The translations under genes and the position numbers were made by a program. Positions 2,796 to 9,912 of a DNA stretch of 10,174 bases are shown in pieces (the stretch's first letter is position 1; each line of letters begins with the position of its first letter). A model generated the notes under the pieces. That model did not search any database. It was not told where the DNA came from and saw only the letters and a list, made by a program, of their open reading frames with translations. Where the stretch lies: IMG/VR virus record IMGVR_UViG_2548876862_000020, one strand, 5' to 3'. Source of the DNA: a virus (lineage: Duplodnaviria; Heunggongvirae; Uroviricota; Caudoviricetes).

Positions 2796-3677
2796 TTACA
2801 TAGATGTTTCGTTTAATTCTTCCCGACGAACGCTGTAAACGTCGGTGGCTTTTGCCAGCAGTTCGTCATCATCTGAAAGTTTTTGTGCAATGTATTTGTA
2901 AGCCTTATCCAGTTCGGAGACAGTGCTGTAATTCATCGCTGCGCTGGTAAAGGCCATCAGCATTTCTTCTGGATCACGGCTATCCGCTTTACGCGTTTGC
3001 TCATCATGCTTTTTCGCTGGTTTAGCGTTGATCAGACTGTTCATTCCCGCAGCAGTAGTCGTTTGCGGAGTAATGTCTCGCTCAACGCGCGGTGCCGTTT
3101 CCTGTAATTCGTCAGGGGTGTAAACACCGAGAAGCACATCAGGAGCGTGCAGGCGAGCCCATCGTTTCGTGCAAAGATAGGCAAGCTGCTGGCGCGGATC
3201 CTGTTCCCACAATGGAGAGTTACGCACTCCGGCTTGCGCCATACTGATGGTAAGCTCACGGGGTTCTGCTTCTCCTTTAAGAACTGCTGACACAGTTACC
3301 GTCAGATTCGGTGATTTATCTGTTTTGCCGTTAACATTCGACCAGTCACCGCTCCAGCGATAATTCAGGCGTGTCGCTAGCAGGCTGGAAGAGGATACGA
3401 CCGCGTTTACCAACTGTGCTTCGTAGCCTAACGTTCCGTTTACCACATGCGTTTTCTGCGCCACGGCGAAAGGGTTCATTCCCCACTGTGCCGCCTGCAT
3501 GGTCACCGCCAGACAATCGGAAGGTTTGCCTTCAAGATGTTTCGGTACAGTCGCTTTGCTTTGTGACATCAACTCCGCGAAACGCACCAGTTGATTCATG
3601 CCCTCGGGGCTGAAGATTGCCGCAGCAGTGCCTACAGTTGCGCCTGGTTGTGATGTGATTGCGATATCATTGCTCAT
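2796..3677 (-). CDS. recT: RecT/Bet-family single-strand annealing recombinase
   Basis: 293-aa ORF. Segments MQAAQWGMNPF and RVERDITP resemble lambda Bet / RecT. Start ATG overlaps the upstream exonuclease stop as ATGA (3677-3674). Confidence 0.85.
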   Translation of the reverse strand: MSNDIAITSQPGATVGTAAAIFSPEGMNQLVRFAELMSQSKATVPKHLEGKPSDCLAVTMQAAQWGMNPFAVAQKTHVVNGTLGYEAQLVNAVVSSSSLLATRLNYRWSGDWSNVNGKTDKSPNLTVTVSAVLKGEAEPRELTISMAQAGVRNSPLWEQDPRQQLAYLCTKRWARLHAPDVLLGVYTPDELQETAPRVERDITPQTTTAAGMNSLINAKPAKKHDEQTRKADSRDPEEMLMAFTSAAMNYSTVSELDKAYKYIAQKLSDDDELLAKATDVYSVRREELNETSM

Positions 3678-4495
3678 ACATACATATCCTGTTTACGTGC
3701 CCAGTCAGGGCGTTTAATAATTTCCACTCCGCCCCATTCATCGTTGATGCGGCATTCGTGATAGGTATTCAGATCCCGGCGGAACAGAGCGTGCCCGGCA
3801 TCGACATCCTGCGCATCCAGCTCGAACACGCGTACCGGATACCGACCACAATCAATGCTTTCGCTCACGGCAAGAAAGAAAAAACCATGCGTCTGACCAG
3901 TAACCCTCATTGCGCCTTCGCGGTACATTGCGTCCTGCACGTGGTAGCGGAATTCCTCGATGTGGCGTGCAAAACGGTCCATATCTGCAACCTTTTTCAC
4001 GTCGACGATCACGTTGTGCTCGTTCAGCCATTTGTCTGGACGAATGCGGCACAACTCACCAGTATCTTCATCGTTCCAGTACATTGATGCTTCGCAGTAA
4101 CCAGGTGCTTCCAGCATCCAGCGTGCCGCCGGGTGAGCCATTGCGCTATCACGCATCAGCTCCAGTTTCCGCCACTGCTCGGCATCAAGTACCGTAATCC
4201 CCATATCCGCCACATCACGAAGAAATGCCTCTTCGTCAGCTTTACCTTGTTTCGTCCGACGATCGAATTTCGGTGAAACAATGAAGCGTTTGTCGAACTC
4301 TCCAGGCTCCAGAAGCAGACAGTGCAATGCGGTTCCCATATCCAGTGCAGACTTTTTCTCTTCGTCTTCTGGTGCTGCCTGAACCCATTTAAGAAGCGCC
4401 GGATTCTTGGCAACCATGTCCAGTTGCGACTTACTCACGCCGTCACCTGCGTGGTAGTCTTCGTTGCTGATGTCGAAATAAATTCCCGGTTTCAT
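3674..4495 (-). CDS. RecE-like short-form exonuclease (exonuclease VIII-like, PD-(D/E)XK fold)
   Basis: 273-aa ORF starting MKPGIYFDISNEDYHAGDGVSKSQLD, typical of prophage short exonuclease VIII-like proteins. Candidate D...E-x-K nuclease motif around RPDKW...VDVKK. Paired and translationally coupled with recT. Confidence 0.8.
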   Translation of the reverse strand: MKPGIYFDISNEDYHAGDGVSKSQLDMVAKNPALLKWVQAAPEDEEKKSALDMGTALHCLLLEPGEFDKRFIVSPKFDRRTKQGKADEEAFLRDVADMGITVLDAEQWRKLELMRDSAMAHPAARWMLEAPGYCEASMYWNDEDTGELCRIRPDKWLNEHNVIVDVKKVADMDRFARHIEEFRYHVQDAMYREGAMRVTGQTHGFFFLAVSESIDCGRYPVRVFELDAQDVDAGHALFRRDLNTYHECRINDEWGGVEIIKRPDWARKQDMYV

Positions 4496-4791
4496 GCCGC
4501 GTCCCTCTGCCCATCAAGCTGATCTGCCAGATCCCAGCGCGCTATAATTGCCATTGCCTCGCGCCGGTAGGCATCCATCAGTTCTTCGAACTCAGGGCTG
4601 TCTTTAGCAGCCTCCAGCACTTCCTGACGAACGCCTTTGCCTGTTACAACGTCGAAAGTTGAGGACAGTTGATGGAGTCGGATGCTCTCAATCAGTTCAA
4701 CTTGTCGGTCATATAGCTGTTCTGACAGGCGGTAGTCCTTGTCGAATGCCAGCATGATTTTTTGAAGATTTTTCTGCTGATTAACGTTCAT
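4492..4791 (-). CDS. Hypothetical protein (99 aa) immediately upstream of and coupled to the exonuclease
   Basis: ATG at 4791 preceded by GGGAGGG at 6-nt spacing. Stop overlaps the exonuclease start as ATGA (4495-4492). Track start at 4806 lacks an SD. Confidence 0.55.
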   Translation of the reverse strand: MNVNQQKNLQKIMLAFDKDYRLSEQLYDRQVELIESIRLHQLSSTFDVVTGKGVRQEVLEAAKDSPEFEELMDAYRREAMAIIARWDLADQLDGQRDAA

Positions 4792-4793
4792 TA

Positions 4794-4946
4794 TCAGCCC
4801 TCCCATATCTCGTTATCGTTGGCTACATCGCGAGCTTCTTTGCTGACGAAAGCCCACTTAATGCCTTCCTGTAAGGTGCGGAACTTCCAGCTCATGAATC
4901 CGCATGCAGCAACGCAGTACCAACCGTTGATGATTTTCCACTGCAT
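4794..4946 (-). CDS. Small Trp-rich ORF (50 aa), first gene downstream of pL
   Basis: Hand-translated, not in ORF track: MQWKIINGWYCVAACGFMSWKFRTLQEGIKWAFVSKEARDVANDNEIWEG. ATG 4946 preceded by GAGGT at 8 nt. E. coli-like codon choice. Its 3' end supplies the SD for the next gene. Confidence 0.35.
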   Translation of the reverse strand: MQWKIINGWYCVAACGFMSWKFRTLQEGIKWAFVSKEARDVANDNEIWEG

Positions 4947-4965
4947 AACTTGTTACCTCGGTCTG

Positions 4966-5042
4966 TTACCGTTGAGGTAATGATTATGCGTATCTGGTTT
5001 GATGTCAATAGATATGAGTTAAAAAAATTACCCATAAGGTAA
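4966..5042 (-). promoter_or_regulatory. pL-like promoter flanked by two operator palindromes
   Basis: Minus strand reads operator TTACCTTATGGGTAA (5042-5028), 19 bp, -35 TTGACA (5008-5003), 17-bp spacer, -10 AATCAT (4985-4980), operator TTACCTCAACGGTAA (4980-4966). Operator centres are 62 bp apart. Confidence 0.6.
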
Positions 5043-5052
5043 TCTTGCTGGC

Positions 5053-5079
5053 AATAAAAAAGCCGCCATGAGGCGGCTT
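5053..5079 (-). terminator. Rho-independent terminator downstream of the repressor gene
   Basis: GC stem gccgcc (5062-5067) / ggcggc (5072-5077), extendable by 2 A-T pairs, with 4-nt loop. Followed on the minus strand by UUUUAUU. Lies 21 bp after the repressor stop. Confidence 0.7.
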
Positions 5080-5099: not shown

Positions 5100-5708
5100 T
5101 TATTGTTTGCTTTTTTCGTTCTGGTTGATGACAAATTCAATGTAACTTTCGATCTTTGCTTTCTCGGTTTCGGGTAACAATGCGTAGCGCGAGCGGTCAT
5201 AGTTGATAGTCGCAGGGTCGTGCGGGTGAATCAGTAGTTCATATCCGTGACGCCCGAATGCGGATGCAACATTCTCCAGGGTGGAAATGGAAACGCTGAC
5301 CTCATTGTTTAACAGGCGGCTGATTGTCACCTGGGCGACGCCGGATGCGCGGTGAAGTTTTCCCTGCGTTGAAAGGTCGCGGCTTTCGCTCATCCAGCGT
5401 TCCAGGTTGTGAGCCGCCAGCTGACCAATGTCGCTTGGTCCGACAGGCTGAAAACCTTCCTGAGAAAGCGAGCGATCGATATCAAGCCAGTTACGGGGTT
5501 TATTGGCGGCAGCTTCAATTTTTCGCGCAACCTGGTCGCCGATAACCTTCTTGCCAAGAGCCCAGCGGTTTACCAGATTTGCCTGAGTTCCAAGTTTTTC
5601 TGCCATCCGCGTCTGAACACCATTGAATTCACGGTCGATCAAGTCGTTGAGATTTTGCCTGCGGACGTCCTGGATACTTTTCATTTTCTGGAAAATCGCC
5701 TCATACAT
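5100..5708 (-). CDS. Prophage immunity repressor (CI-like position) with two HTH domains and no apparent S24 peptidase domain
   Basis: 202-aa ORF divergent from the cro-like gene across the operator region. N-terminal HTH (QTRMAEKLGTQANLVNRWALGKK) and a second XRE-type HTH (SGVAQVTISRLLNNEVSVSISTLENVASAFG). No room or motif for a LexA-like Ser/Lys autocleavage domain. Confidence 0.75.
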   Translation of the reverse strand: MYEAIFQKMKSIQDVRRQNLNDLIDREFNGVQTRMAEKLGTQANLVNRWALGKKVIGDQVARKIEAAANKPRNWLDIDRSLSQEGFQPVGPSDIGQLAAHNLERWMSESRDLSTQGKLHRASGVAQVTISRLLNNEVSVSISTLENVASAFGRHGYELLIHPHDPATINYDRSRYALLPETEKAKIESYIEFVINQNEKSKQ

Positions 5709-5739
5709 GAATCAGTAGATGATTCAATTTAAAGCAATA

Positions 5740-5813
5740 TTACCCAACAGGTAAATGCACCCCATAGGTAACTATCCTTGATTTTTGTTACCTTATGGGT
5801 GAATATTTATTAT
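5740..5813. promoter_or_regulatory. OR-like operator/promoter region between repressor and cro-like genes
   Basis: Three palindromes: 5740-5754 ttacccaacaggtaa, 5757-5771 gcaccccataggtaa (degenerate), 5788-5802 ttaccttatgggtga. Candidate pR: -35 TTGTTA (5785-5790), 17 bp, -10 TATTAT (5808-5813). Candidate pRM on minus strand: -10 AATCAT (5724-5719), a few nt before the repressor ATG. Confidence 0.55.
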
Positions 5814-5838
5814 CTGAAATAAATATCAGGCAATAGCT

Positions 5839-6069
5839 ATGAGCGATAACGGACATTTCGATTTCAAAAAGCACTGGCTTGCACTTACTCCGGATGAGCG
5901 TGAAGCCTTCGCACAGGAAGCCGGAACGACGAGTCACTATATCCAGACTCACTTAACAGGTAAGCGCAAAATGCCAGGTAAAGTATTGATGAATGGGCTT
6001 TTTAAAGCCTGTAAATCAAGACAATGGTTGCGCTCAAAAGCAGAACTGGCATACTTCTTCTACTCATGA
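5839..6069 (+). CDS. Cro-like HTH regulator (YdaS/Cro-type)
   Basis: 76-aa ORF divergent from the repressor. HTH-like segment LTPDEREAFAQEAGTTSHYIQTHLTGKRKMP. Occupies the cro position. Confidence 0.65.
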   Translation: MSDNGHFDFKKHWLALTPDEREAFAQEAGTTSHYIQTHLTGKRKMPGKVLMNGLFKACKSRQWLRSKAELAYFFYS

Positions 6070-6090
6070 TATCCAGCCACAACCCTCTGT

Positions 6091-6114
6091 AGACCGCCAT
6101 CCGGCGGTCTTTTC
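6091..6114 (+). terminator. Intrinsic terminator after the cro-like gene (tR1-like position)
   Basis: Stem agaccgcc (6091-6098) / ggcggtct (6103-6110), loop atcc, followed by TTTT (6111-6114). Confidence 0.6.
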
Positions 6115-6219
6115 ATATCTATTCGCACCTCAAAGGTAATAAAAAACCAAATCTGGTTGATCTTTTTTTTGTGTCAGCACAAAATAACCGTAATCCCAAT
6201 ACTAATAACAGGGCTTACC

Positions 6220-6420
6220 ATGGAAATCATTACACGTATTGATGCCGCAAAGCGCGGACTTAAACGCTACTACACCGGAAAACCATGTAAGCACGGACAT
6301 GACAGTGAACGCTGGGTTTACAACGGACACTGTGTTGAGTGCACCATGGAATCAAACCGTCGCATCAGGGCAGAGATTAAGCAGATCATGATTAATTCCT
6401 CCCCACAACATTCAAGCTGA
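6220..6420 (+). CDS. Small Cys/His zinc-ribbon-like protein (66 aa) at the cII position
   Basis: Internal ATG 6220 of track ORF 6157..6420. Upstream part of the track ORF overlaps the terminator region and is hydrophobic junk. Motif C-K-H-G-H ... C-V-E-C. Confidence 0.5.
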   Translation: MEIITRIDAAKRGLKRYYTGKPCKHGHDSERWVYNGHCVECTMESNRRIRAEIKQIMINSSPQHSS

Positions 6421-6435
6421 TAGCGGAGATTAATC

Positions 6436-7251
6436 ATGAGCAGACATGCAACAGATTGGGCCTGGGAGACAGATCCAGGTAGCTCGTCATTAAAGCTCAT
6501 ACTGCTCTCGATGGCTGACAGAGCCGATGAATATAACCTCTGCTACCCCAGCATAGAACGCCTCGTTAAAGACACTTGCCTGAATAAAAAAACCGTACAG
6601 GCCGGGCTTATATCGCTCATGAAAATGGGGCTTATTTCAGATACCGGAGAGAGAAAGGGTGCGACGAAAAGAGTGCGGGTTTTCTCTCTTAATATAACCA
6701 AAAACGGGAACATTAAAGGCAACCGGGAGGGAGGTAATGAACCCAAAAACGGTAATGTTACCGAAAACGGGAATATACCCAAAAACGGGATGTTGAATAT
6801 ACCCAAAAACGGGATGTTGAATGATCCCAAAAACGGGATCCAGAACCAGTCATATAACCAGTCATTTAACCAAGAGAGGGAGAGCAGGACAAAAACCGGG
6901 GATTCTGTTCCTCATGACCCCGGCGCAAACAACGCCGTGATGAATAACTTTGTTCCTCCTGGTGGGCTAGGGCAATTAGGCAAATTTGTCATGCATGAAC
7001 AATGGCAACCATCAGATGACTTTCTTCGGAAAAGCTCATTGCAGGGGATCTACCTGGACAGTCTGCCAACGGCACAGGAACTTGCAGAGTTCAGAATTTA
7101 CTGGATGGCTGAGGGTAAGGCATACCATCAGGCACAGTGGGAGCAGAAGCTGGCAAGGCGGCTGCAGATTAGCAGACAGAAGCAATCAACATTACCTGAT
7201 AACAACGTTCCGCACTGGAACAGCCCTGAAGCGTGGGAGGATTTCTTGTGA
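6436..7251 (+). CDS. Replication initiator, O-like (winged-helix N-domain, repeat linker, C-domain)
   Basis: 271-aa ORF, ATG 6436 preceded by GGAG at 7 nt. Contains DNA iterons internally. Immediately followed by and overlapped with a lambda P-like gene. Confidence 0.8.
   Translation: MSRHATDWAWETDPGSSSLKLILLSMADRADEYNLCYPSIERLVKDTCLNKKTVQAGLISLMKMGLISDTGERKGATKRVRVFSLNITKNGNIKGNREGGNEPKNGNVTENGNIPKNGMLNIPKNGMLNDPKNGIQNQSYNQSFNQERESRTKTGDSVPHDPGANNAVMNNFVPPGGLGQLGKFVMHEQWQPSDDFLRKSSLQGIYLDSLPTAQELAEFRIYWMAEGKAYHQAQWEQKLARRLQISRQKQSTLPDNNVPHWNSPEAWEDFL
6698..6840 (+). repeat. Origin-like iterons inside the O-like gene
   Basis: Six copies of core CCAAAAACGG(G/T)A at 6698, 6743, 6762, 6778, 6802, 6826. 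Two exact 24-bp tandem units at 6775-6798 and 6799-6822. Followed by tandem CAGTCAT(A/T)TAACC at 6847-6871. Encodes the low-complexity PKNG peptide repeat. Confidence 0.75.
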
Positions 7252-8070: not shown

Positions 8071-8147
8071 TTACCTGTTGGGTAATAAAATATTCTAAAA
8101 TCTATTGATTTCGTGTCTTATGTGGTTTTTAATTACCTCAGGGGTAA
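8071..8147 (+). promoter_or_regulatory. Third operator-flanked promoter (p3) upstream of the DUF1064-like gene
   Basis: Operator TTACCTGTTGGGTAA (8071-8085), 19 bp, -35 TTGATT (8105-8110), 17-bp spacer, -10 TTTAAT (8128-8133), operator TTACCTCAGGGGTAA (8133-8147). Same spacing as pL. Confidence 0.55.
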
Positions 8148-8150
8148 ATC

Positions 8151-8495
8151 ATGAGAAAACAGATACAGGCTCTTGGTCGACTCAAAACAGGCCAGATGAA
8201 CAAAACAGAATCTGCGTATTGCCAGCACCTTGAGCTGCGTAAACGTGCAGGGGAAATCGCCTGGTATCGATTCGAGGGTATCAAGCTGCGGTTAGCTGAT
8301 AACACGTTCTATACGCCAGATTTCGCTGTGATGCTCGCCACCGGAGAGATGGAACTGCACGAAGTGAAAGGTTTCTGGACCGACGACGCCAGGGTGAAAA
8401 CCAAAGTCGCCGCAGATCAATATCCGTTCCGAATCATCGGGGTAACTGTTAAGCCAAAGAAAGCAGGTGGTGGCTGGAAAATCGAAGAGTTCTGA
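8151..8495 (+). CDS. DUF1064-like phage protein (predicted PD-(D/E)XK-type nuclease fold)
   Basis: 114-aa ORF. Motif YTPDF ... GEMELHEVKG fits D-x(n)-E-x-K. Overall pattern recalled as DUF1064, common next to lambdoid replication genes. Confidence 0.6.
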   Translation: MRKQIQALGRLKTGQMNKTESAYCQHLELRKRAGEIAWYRFEGIKLRLADNTFYTPDFAVMLATGEMELHEVKGFWTDDARVKTKVAADQYPFRIIGVTVKPKKAGGGWKIEEF

Positions 8496-9347: not shown

Positions 9348-9912
9348 CTATCAGGCGCTGCGTGAGGCAGCAGAACGTGCAATTCCGGCAATGGAACGCC
9401 TGTTAATGTTGCCAGTTGATGATGATTTGTTAAGTGAACAGGAACTTAAAGATTACGGTGTGGATATTGATGCGCTCAACGCCTTCAAATTTCTGACCGG
9501 ACCAGAAACCGTGCTGGCACTACTGGATGAACTGGAAAGAAACCAGCAATACATAAAACGCCGCGATCAGGAGAACGAGGAAATTGCGCTAACGGTAGGG
9601 AAGCTGCGTGTTGAGCTGGAAGCCGCAGAGAAGCGCATTGCAGAACTGGAAGCACGGGAAATAAAACCAGCCAAAGGCGAAGTTCTTGTCGTTGTTTCTG
9701 GTTTTACTGGTTGCGGAAAAAGCGCCATTGCCGGGGAAATAGAAATCGCGATGAAGGCTATTGGTGTACCGGTTAAGTGGACTAATGGCGATGCAGAAAA
9801 GCGCATGACTGGCGCTGACTGGCTGACAGCAATTGAGATGTACAAACCAACTGTGCGCATTGTGGAAGTTAATGTGCCACGCGTCGCTGGCATTCGCATC
9901 AAAGGAGAGTGA
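9334..9912 (+). CDS. Ead/Ea22-like family protein (coiled-coil)
   Basis: GTG 9334 preceded by AAGGAGG at 6 nt. N-terminal IDYQALREAAERA, then VLALLDELE and KRIAELE, match the recalled Ea22-like pattern. Confidence 0.6.
   Translation: MSKIDYQALREAAERAIPAMERLLMLPVDDDLLSEQELKDYGVDIDALNAFKFLTGPETVLALLDELERNQQYIKRRDQENEEIALTVGKLRVELEAAEKRIAELEAREIKPAKGEVLVVVSGFTGCGKSAIAGEIEIAMKAIGVPVKWTNGDAEKRMTGADWLTAIEMYKPTVRIVEVNVPRVAGIRIKGE

Follow-up and report, generated by a model that had tools for sequence, protein, structure and literature searches.

A 2025 survey of the recombination modules of lambdoid phages distinguished four types of anti-RecBCD protein, namely Gam, phi80-type GamL, Abc2 and MuGam, and reported, for Gam and GamL, different sequences but similar predicted folds (PMC12315714). 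In the structure of RecBCD bound to GamS, the long N-terminal helix of the inhibitor enters the single-strand DNA channel of RecB, and the protein further lies over the duplex-DNA site of the RecB arm, where its acidic side chains take positions like those of the phosphates of DNA (PMC5218532). According to two surveys, lambdoid phages that carry Gam or Abc2 avoid Chi sites (observed/expected about 0.3 and 0, respectively), and in those that have a recombinase and no inhibitor Chi is enriched (about 2.5) (PMC3784561). The RecE/RecT operon has been described, in a recombineering paper, as apparently lacking a Gam-like gene. Here we analyse two small open reading frames (ORFs), ORF50 and ORF99, at the head of a RecE/RecT-type recombination module in a 10,174-nucleotide stretch of caudoviral DNA (IMG/VR record IMGVR_UViG_2548876862_000020), hereafter the window. 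A first-pass annotation had compared them, by their position, with lambda kil and gam. The explanation that we favour, with slightly more confidence than an even chance would warrant, is that ORF99 is a diverged relative of Gam and ORF50 an independent protein under constraint, both expressed from a shared repressor-controlled promoter.

The window is a prophage of the phiV10/TL-2011b type, which belongs to the genus Uetakevirus of epsilon15-like podoviruses. Its two small genes and the recombination genes that follow them are:

4794-4946, minus strand: ORF50, 50 codons, Trp-rich; corresponds to phiV10 gp39 and epsilon15 gp37; PHROG 898
4492-4791, minus strand: ORF99, 99 amino acids (aa); corresponds to phiV10 gp38 and epsilon15 gp36; PHROG 856
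3674-4495, minus strand: RecE-like PD-(D/E)XK exonuclease, 273 aa; Pfam DUF3799, PHROG exonuclease VIII
2796-3677, minus strand: RecT single-strand annealing protein, 293 aa; Pfam RecT

The 701 bases around ORF50 and ORF99 are 95-97% identical to phages of the phiV10/TL-2011b type and are present in 559 of 5426 complete Escherichia coli genomes (about 1 in 10). The gene pair is common, yet both products are labelled 'hypothetical protein' in every database and other source examined. Scans with Pfam, NCBIfam and PADLOC gave no match for either protein, and a literature search for functional studies of phiV10 gp38/gp39 or epsilon15 gp36/gp37 returned none. Both match their PHROG families over the full length (E 2e-37 for ORF50, E 2e-55 for ORF99), and both families are limited to the Enterobacteriaceae, where they include members from Salmonella, Klebsiella, Citrobacter and Enterobacter. 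An exhaustive profile search with ORF99 against 1.84 billion representatives recovered only 35 clusters of its own family and no annotated relatives.

Profile comparison of ORF99 with Gam

Alignment of the ORF99 family with a profile of nine lambda-type Gam sequences gave an hhalign probability of 92.2% (E 5.8e-7, score 40.2) over 55 colinear columns, which pair residues 33-87 of ORF99 with residues 35-90 of GamS, and the result was reproduced. The probability rose as both profiles were broadened, from 5% and 9% (single Gam) to 31% with three Gam sequences, 51% with four and 88.5% with ten. For the ten-sequence profile, the real score of 37.2 compares with about 11.4 +/- 2.6 (maximum 22.2) in 300 column shuffles and with 13-15.5 for reversed profiles, a control that retains composition and helical periodicity. 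The relationship was also recovered in both directions in a rank test that used plain HMMER against the 9,092 unique ORF segments provided by all the loci retrieved. With the hidden Markov model (HMM) of the ORF99 family, the scores of all 50 Gam segments were 7.7-21.6 bits, compared with 8.6 for the best unrelated segment, so that 48 of the 50 stood above all unrelated ones; with the Gam HMM, 26 of 38 ORF99-family segments ranked above every unrelated ORF. These scores give statistical support to ORF99 as a previously unrecognised remote homolog of the C-terminal ~55 residues of lambda Gam. The first-pass annotation had seen no similarity to Gam and had called the comparison a purely positional inference. 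The former statement holds by eye, by BLAST and by Pfam but fails at the level of profile-profile comparison, and with it the latter, since this homology adds support beyond position.

The physical traits of the two families also agree. ORF99 has 99 residues, a net charge of -6 and an isoelectric point (pI) of 4.7, and the members of its family have 97-102 residues, net charges of -4 to -9 and pI values of 4.5-5.2; the corresponding ranges for Gam and GamL together are 93-98 residues, -7 to -11 and 4.6-5.3. The AlphaFold2 model of ORF99 is an all-helical hairpin with a mean confidence (pLDDT) of 75 and helices at residues 3-39, 42-45, 48-51, 56-63 and 66-98. ORF99 is thus small (~98 aa), acidic and, as far as the model goes, all-helical, as is lambda Gam/GamS (PF06064; PDB 2uuz, 5mbv; ~98 residues). 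The region that ORF99 retains would belong to the dimer body of GamS, and its N-terminal helix is unrelated to the GamS helix that enters the RecB channel.

The similarity among Gam-like proteins is distributed unevenly along their length. Lambda Gam resembles the GamL of phi80 (9555-9836) and HK639 only over the first ~22 residues (MNAY..DRIE..W; hhalign 93%), and ORF99 has no detectable similarity to phi80/HK639 GamL (0.5%). Since Gam and GamL share an N-terminus, and ORF99 and Gam a core, Gam-like proteins look mosaic, with an N-terminal helix and a body that can be exchanged. By these comparisons ORF99 would amount to a third sequence type of Gam-like protein. GamL is like ORF99 in size and charge, and it too escapes the Pfam Gam model; it lies directly after Mog and directly before RecT, and ORF99 likewise has Mog upstream in many prophages. 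The two differ in what they share with lambda Gam, which is the N-terminal ~22 residues for GamL and the C-terminal core for ORF99. Another small acidic protein encoded beside a phage recombination pair, as ORF99 is, is Plu-gamma (Plu2934) of Photorhabdus luminescens, which was taken to be the equivalent of Gam on the strength of a weak HHpred match (71.7%, 27 residues) and later shown to boost recombineering. Plu-gamma resembles Gam's N-terminal helix and has experimental support, whereas ORF99 resembles the C-terminal core and is known from sequence alone.

A possible further member is found in the Edwardsiella phage Edno5, which is listed in the literature as having no anti-RecBCD gene. Its region 1498-2883 encodes, in order, cIII, a 39-aa ORF, a 104-aa hypothetical protein, exonuclease VIII and RecT. 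The 104-aa protein is the second-best unrelated match of the ORF99 HMM, and its C-terminal helix aligns with that of a distant ORF99 member, P0180 (38% identity over 37 residues, pairwise E 1e-6). The direct comparison with ORF99 was not significant, so that the link runs only through P0180; Edno5 may carry an anti-RecBCD gene after all.

Gene context of ORF99

In the window the genes are closely packed. The TGA of ORF50 and the ATG of ORF99 are separated by a gap of 2 nucleotides (nt), and the ribosome-binding site of ORF99 (GGGAGGG) sits within the last codons of ORF50. The ATGA at 4492-4495 contains both the stop of ORF99 and the start of the exonuclease gene, as the first-pass annotation had stated, and a second ATGA at 3674-3677 joins the exonuclease stop to the recT start. 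The gap and the two overlaps bear out its description of exo, recT and the two small genes as one coupled unit. ORF50 has its own ribosome-binding site (GAGGT, 4955-4959), 8 nt 5' of the ATG. A second in-frame ATG, at 4806, would give a 104-codon version of ORF99 that overlaps ORF50 by 13 nt; the ribosome-binding site, the family alignment and the length of the PHROG profile all speak for the 99-codon start. In the phiV10 record (5101-6861) the exonuclease and RecT are annotated as one fused protein of 586 aa, whereas the window (2796-4495) and most relatives encode them separately, in two genes that overlap as ATGA. The join in phiV10 could be a real fusion, or it could reflect a frameshift or a sequencing difference.

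The surroundings of the two genes were compared in ten loci from Escherichia, Salmonella, Enterobacter, Klebsiella, Ca. Erwinia dacicola, Pseudocitrobacter, Citrobacter, Kluyvera and Scandinavium. ORF99 heads the recombination module in all loci examined, either directly or with one small gene in between, and a start/stop overlap between the ORF99-family gene and the first gene of the module is usual. The module itself is of more than one kind. In the window ORF99 is followed by a DUF3799 exonuclease and RecT; in Klebsiella and Erwinia dacicola it is followed by a YqaJ-family exonuclease and a different RecT, with the 4-base start/stop overlap kept; and in the most divergent member found, P0171, RecT follows directly, the same order as in lambda gam-bet and phi80 gamL-recT. 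This independence from the type of partner favours a host-directed function of ORF99 over that of a subunit of a particular exonuclease. The partners of ORF99, a RecE-like or YqaJ-type exonuclease with RecT, differ from those of lambda Gam, which are Exo and Beta, and the finding suggests that modules of the RecE/RecT type can bring a Gam-like gene of their own. The small genes between ORF99 and the exonuclease encode 96 aa in Pseudocitrobacter (L088, 4300-4590), 68 aa with weak MarR/helix-turn-helix (HTH) matches in Salmonella (L273-L276, 4300-4506) and 45 aa in phage Tyrion (33585-33722).

ORF50 and ORF99 are separable. A gene for a 330-aa protein lies between them in prophages of Salmonella, Citrobacter and Kluyvera, and a gene for a 101-aa protein in the Scandinavium prophage. 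The 330-aa product is a homolog of phi80 Mog/Agt (64.5% identity, E 1e-122; 47.6%, E 1e-63), and its gene stands directly upstream of ORF99 in Citrobacter, in Kluyvera and in very common Salmonella prophages. In the phi80 record Mog has the descriptions 'modifier of Gam' and 'anti-toxin for Gam', its gene lies next to gamL on the upstream side, and GamL is annotated as an inhibitor of both RecBCD and SbcCD. On one viral contig a Mog homolog (E 5e-83) directly precedes a lambda-type Gam, so that lambda Gam, like ORF99, can follow a Mog-like gene, and all three Gam sequence types are found immediately downstream of Mog. We regard this association as supportive and not decisive because Mog-like genes also occur without any Gam, upstream of cIII in mEp234 and in a Yersinia phage (where the product is annotated as TolA-like). 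The window itself has no Mog gene. The Mog homologs of the ORF99 loci (3001-3993 in L089 and L273-L276; 3000-3992 in L090) belong to no Pfam family and have a charged, repeat-rich middle.

Chi sites and the possible target of ORF99

Put together, these observations lead to the following proposal. The repressor-controlled early-left promoter would drive ORF50, ORF99, the exonuclease and RecT together, and ORF99 would be made jointly with the recombination exonuclease through the start/stop overlap, which in the window is an ATGA. The protein would keep the C-terminal ~55-residue helical core of Gam and combine it with a long N-terminal helix of its own. It would most likely act as a small acidic dimer that fills the DNA-end site of a host double-strand-end nuclease, by default RecBCD, with SbcCD or another enzyme also possible, and its block would shield linear phage DNA as well as the DNA on which the phage exonuclease and RecT act. 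Dimerisation, DNA mimicry and the identity of the target we infer, as we would any activity of ORF50. If active, ORF99 would be a candidate helper for RecET recombineering in enterobacteria.

Several observations weigh against this proposal. The Pfam Gam model (PF06064), which matches lambda GamS (217 bits) and phiES15 Gam (62 bits) and misses phi80 GamL, gave no match to ORF99 or to 29 members of its family, even at E 10. The similarity to Gam covers the C-terminal part only, about 55% of the protein, and the N-terminal helix with which Gam plugs the RecB channel is not conserved in ORF99. A Foldseek search with the ORF99 model, a monomer of only moderate confidence, was uninformative, with nothing below E 1 among PDB and viral (BFVD) structures, and a PDB sequence search with the ORF99 profile returned noise and no Gam. 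The remaining observation concerns Chi (GCTGGTGG), which we counted in five complete ORF99-carrying genomes (L267-L271). There are 35 sites in all where a trinucleotide model predicts 15.4, an observed/expected ratio of 2.3, and by this proxy the phages that carry ORF99 look as if RecBCD were active and useful to them. The counts on the forward and reverse strands are 8/0 in phiV10, 6/0 in epsilon15, 0/9 in BUCT554 (whose record is in reverse orientation), 9/1 in Tyrion and 2/0 in Kp4865-1. Shuffling of synonymous codons within genes gave 17.9 +/- 3.7 sites, and none of 300 shuffles reached 35; the excess does not arise from protein sequence or codon usage, and the latter is ruled out as its source. 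Chi sites are positively selected in ORF99-carrying phages. The enrichment is about two-fold, and the sites are almost perfectly co-oriented in four of the five Uetakevirus genomes; in the window a Chi site is also listed at positions 865-872.

Gam-encoding phages avoid Chi, whereas the genomes with ORF99 are rich in it. The idea of the first-pass annotation that ORF99 might be a counterpart of Gam is supported by remote homology, length, acidity and position, but the Chi pattern argues against a full block of RecBCD. It lowers our confidence in such a block, which we now put somewhat short of an even chance, and raises that in a retargeted protein. ORF99 might descend from Gam and yet act elsewhere, its DNA-mimic core kept and its new N-terminal helix blocking SbcCD or a defence nuclease, an alternative that we regard as rather unlikely. 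RecBCD would then be left active and recruited through the many Chi sites, which are selected and co-oriented in four of the five genomes. The sharing of only the C-terminal core with lambda Gam, with an unrelated helix in place of the one that enters the RecB channel, also fits, and the annotation of phi80 GamL against both RecBCD and SbcCD shows Gam-type proteins not to be tied to one nuclease. However, the correlation between Chi and inhibitors was established on lambdoid phages and not on Uetakeviruses and has 24 exceptions among 202, and Kp4865-1 has few Chi sites. A broader version, which we also consider improbable without discounting it, holds that ORF99 is a Gam-derived DNA mimic with an exchanged N-terminal 'plug' helix that has lost the shutdown of RecBCD and acts on another host end-binding nuclease or defence factor, or else blocks RecBCD only for a time, that the co-oriented Chi sites serve to exploit RecBCD, and that ORF50 represents a new class of host-directed microprotein with no relation to Kil or cIII. 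It is also conceivable that the resemblance to Gam has no functional meaning and that ORF99 assists the exonuclease or RecT as an accessory subunit or chaperone, comparable to Arf/Abc1 of P22. The constant position of ORF99, which overlaps or abuts the first recombination gene everywhere save the few loci with a small inserted gene, would suit such a role, as would the lack of specificity of the fold searches and a RecBCD left unblocked, as the Chi enrichment suggests. We judge it very unlikely nonetheless: three kinds of downstream partner (DUF3799 exonuclease, YqaJ-type exonuclease and RecT directly) are hard to fit with a dedicated subunit, searches in either direction show the profile similarity to Gam to be specific among the 9,092 decoys, and ORF99 has no similarity to Arf or Abc1.

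The tension between Gam homology and Chi enrichment is, in our opinion, the most interesting aspect of the locus. A Gam-like gene together with selected Chi sites makes the current idea that a phage either inhibits RecBCD or recruits it by Chi, and does not do both, directly testable; if the retargeted or transient reading is true, this lineage would unite RecBCD inhibition and Chi recruitment, which surveys have treated as alternatives. With ORF99 as a relative of Gam, the Gam-like proteins would come in three sequence types, and surveys that use the Pfam Gam and Abc2 models to score phages as having a recombinase but no RecBCD inhibitor may have missed its family.

Conservation and possible roles of ORF50

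ORF50 was described in the first-pass annotation as containing 5 Trp and 3 Cys; the former number is correct, and the latter is 2 (C11 and C15). Its amino acid sequence is under strong purifying selection. Over the first 39 codons the pairwise ratio of nonsynonymous to synonymous rates (dN/dS) is 0.05-0.2, with synonymous sites saturated, and 30 of the 39 third codon positions vary, compared with 12-13 of the first and second positions. Residues 1-36 are near-invariant over nine genera and the tail is variable. A lack of conservation of the 50-codon frame, which had been named as grounds for rejecting the proposed roles, is thus the opposite of what we find. ORF50 is the first ORF past the repressor in all ten loci compared, and its identity holds at 68-98% where that of the adjacent repressor falls to 41-45%. 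This steadiness would argue against a partner specific to the repressor, such as an antirepressor, and for a conserved host target, to which the invariant first 36 residues may also point. ORF50 is a genuine, strongly constrained and independent gene, associated with the promoter and immunity region; as far as our profile comparisons reach it is an orphan microprotein, placed in no known family. Its strong conservation, early position and lack of known relatives make this microprotein well suited to a simple expression screen.

The size of ORF50 and its place in the early-left region recall lambda cIII (54 aa) and Kil (47 aa), and more generally Kil, Rac KilR, P22 Kil, cIII and P22 Arf, all of 40-75 aa and early-left. 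It might therefore be a functional analogue of Kil that blocks host division, as the first-pass annotation had supposed, or a cIII-like inhibitor of the FtsH protease, and near-invariance of its first 36 residues hints at a conserved host target. By eye, ORF50 and cIII share MQ-x-I--GW, a Cys and R-L--G-K, the cIII of a Yersinia phage being closest, and hhalign recovered this motif in the same alignment (ORF50 6-31 against cIII 6-35). However, the comparisons, made with 8 and then 12 cIII sequences, scored 10.8-11.9 against 9.5 +/- 2.5 for shuffled controls, and 19-41 of 150 shuffles were as good. With a score equal to that of shuffles and no Pfam match, ORF50 was rejected as a member of the cIII family (PF02061-type). 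Against lambda Kil, KilR and P22 Kil, hhalign probabilities were below 1% with scores within the shuffle range, and in an HMM rank test among 6,610 segments the Kil families ranked beyond 490th and cIII only 27th. The position differs as well: where a relative has a Mog-like gene, ORF50 is found on the upstream side of it, whereas cIII and kil of mEp234 lie downstream, and ORF50 is promoter-proximal and does not adjoin the recombination genes in every relative. Its structure model, a low-confidence single helix, is uninformative on the question. These results do not support the comparison with Kil: ORF50 has no detectable similarity to the three Kil families, and it is the promoter and immunity region, rather than ORF99, with which it travels. 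A role in Kil- or cIII-like inhibition seems to us unlikely, a division-inhibitor role being suggested by position. No relation was found between ORF50 and P22 Arf, Abc1, gene 17, Ral, lambda Ea10 or the neighbouring small ORFs, nor between either ORF50 or ORF99 and the early proteins of Rac (RacC, YdaE, KilR, YdaF, YdaG, RcbA, RalR and the N-terminal region of RecE).

ORF50 could instead act as a leader or as an upstream regulatory ORF, perhaps one that senses Trp, which controls ORF99 and the recombination genes and has no function as a protein. It heads the transcript, 5 of its 50 residues are Trp, and its last codons contain the ribosome-binding site of ORF99. However, its Trp codons are dispersed and not clustered, the two genes have only a 2-nt gap between them and no structure of the terminator or antiterminator kind, selection acts strongly on 36 of its amino acids, and in many relatives 0.3-1 kb of other genes separate it from ORF99. 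Given the last two observations in particular, we consider a leader peptide highly improbable and retain ORF50 as an independent, constrained protein.

Predicted early-left promoter and repressor control

Upstream of ORF50 the window contains the following features:

5100-5708, minus strand: prophage repressor, 202 aa, two HTH domains; Pfam HTH_3 and PHROG transcriptional regulator
5060-5079, minus strand: intrinsic terminator of the repressor transcript, an 8-bp GC-rich stem followed by a T run
5028-5042, no strand: operator-like palindrome TTACCCATAAGGTAA upstream of the -35 hexamer, a perfect TTACC-N5-GGTAA
4980-5008, minus strand: predicted early-left promoter (pL), TTGACA-17-AATCAT, a 10/12 match to the sigma-70 consensus
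4966-4980, no strand: operator-like palindrome TTACCGTTGAGGTAA abutting the -10 hexamer, a perfect TTACC-N5-GGTAA

The repressor is homologous to phiV10 gp40 and epsilon15 gp38, and the terminator is also annotated in phiV10. There are 11 matches to TTACC-N5-GGTAA in the window compared with 2.9 expected, and none of 200 shuffles reached 11; besides the two copies that flank the promoter, the motif recurs three times between the repressor and cro-like genes. From its position against the -10 hexamer, the palindrome at 4966-4980 would block RNA polymerase. The first-pass annotation made ORF50 the first gene after pL, which the terminator, the predicted promoter, the flanking palindromes and the repressor sites annotated at the equivalent position in the epsilon15 record all support, with the proviso that pL itself is a prediction. 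ORF50 and ORF99 would accordingly be two distinct genes on one transcript from this putative repressor-controlled promoter, as in the explanation that we slightly favour as a whole.

A Pfam scan of the repressor found no LexA-like peptidase domain, and in a study of the related phage ZX5 a separate Bro-N antirepressor was implicated in induction. Together these suggest that induction is probably driven by an antirepressor and not by self-cleavage. Perfect TTACC-N5-GGTAA palindromes also occur at 8071-8085 and 8133-8147, after the replication genes and a terminator and just upstream of a DUF1064 gene (8151-8495, plus strand), which suggests a third repressor-controlled promoter; the epsilon15 record likewise annotates a repressor site after its replication genes.

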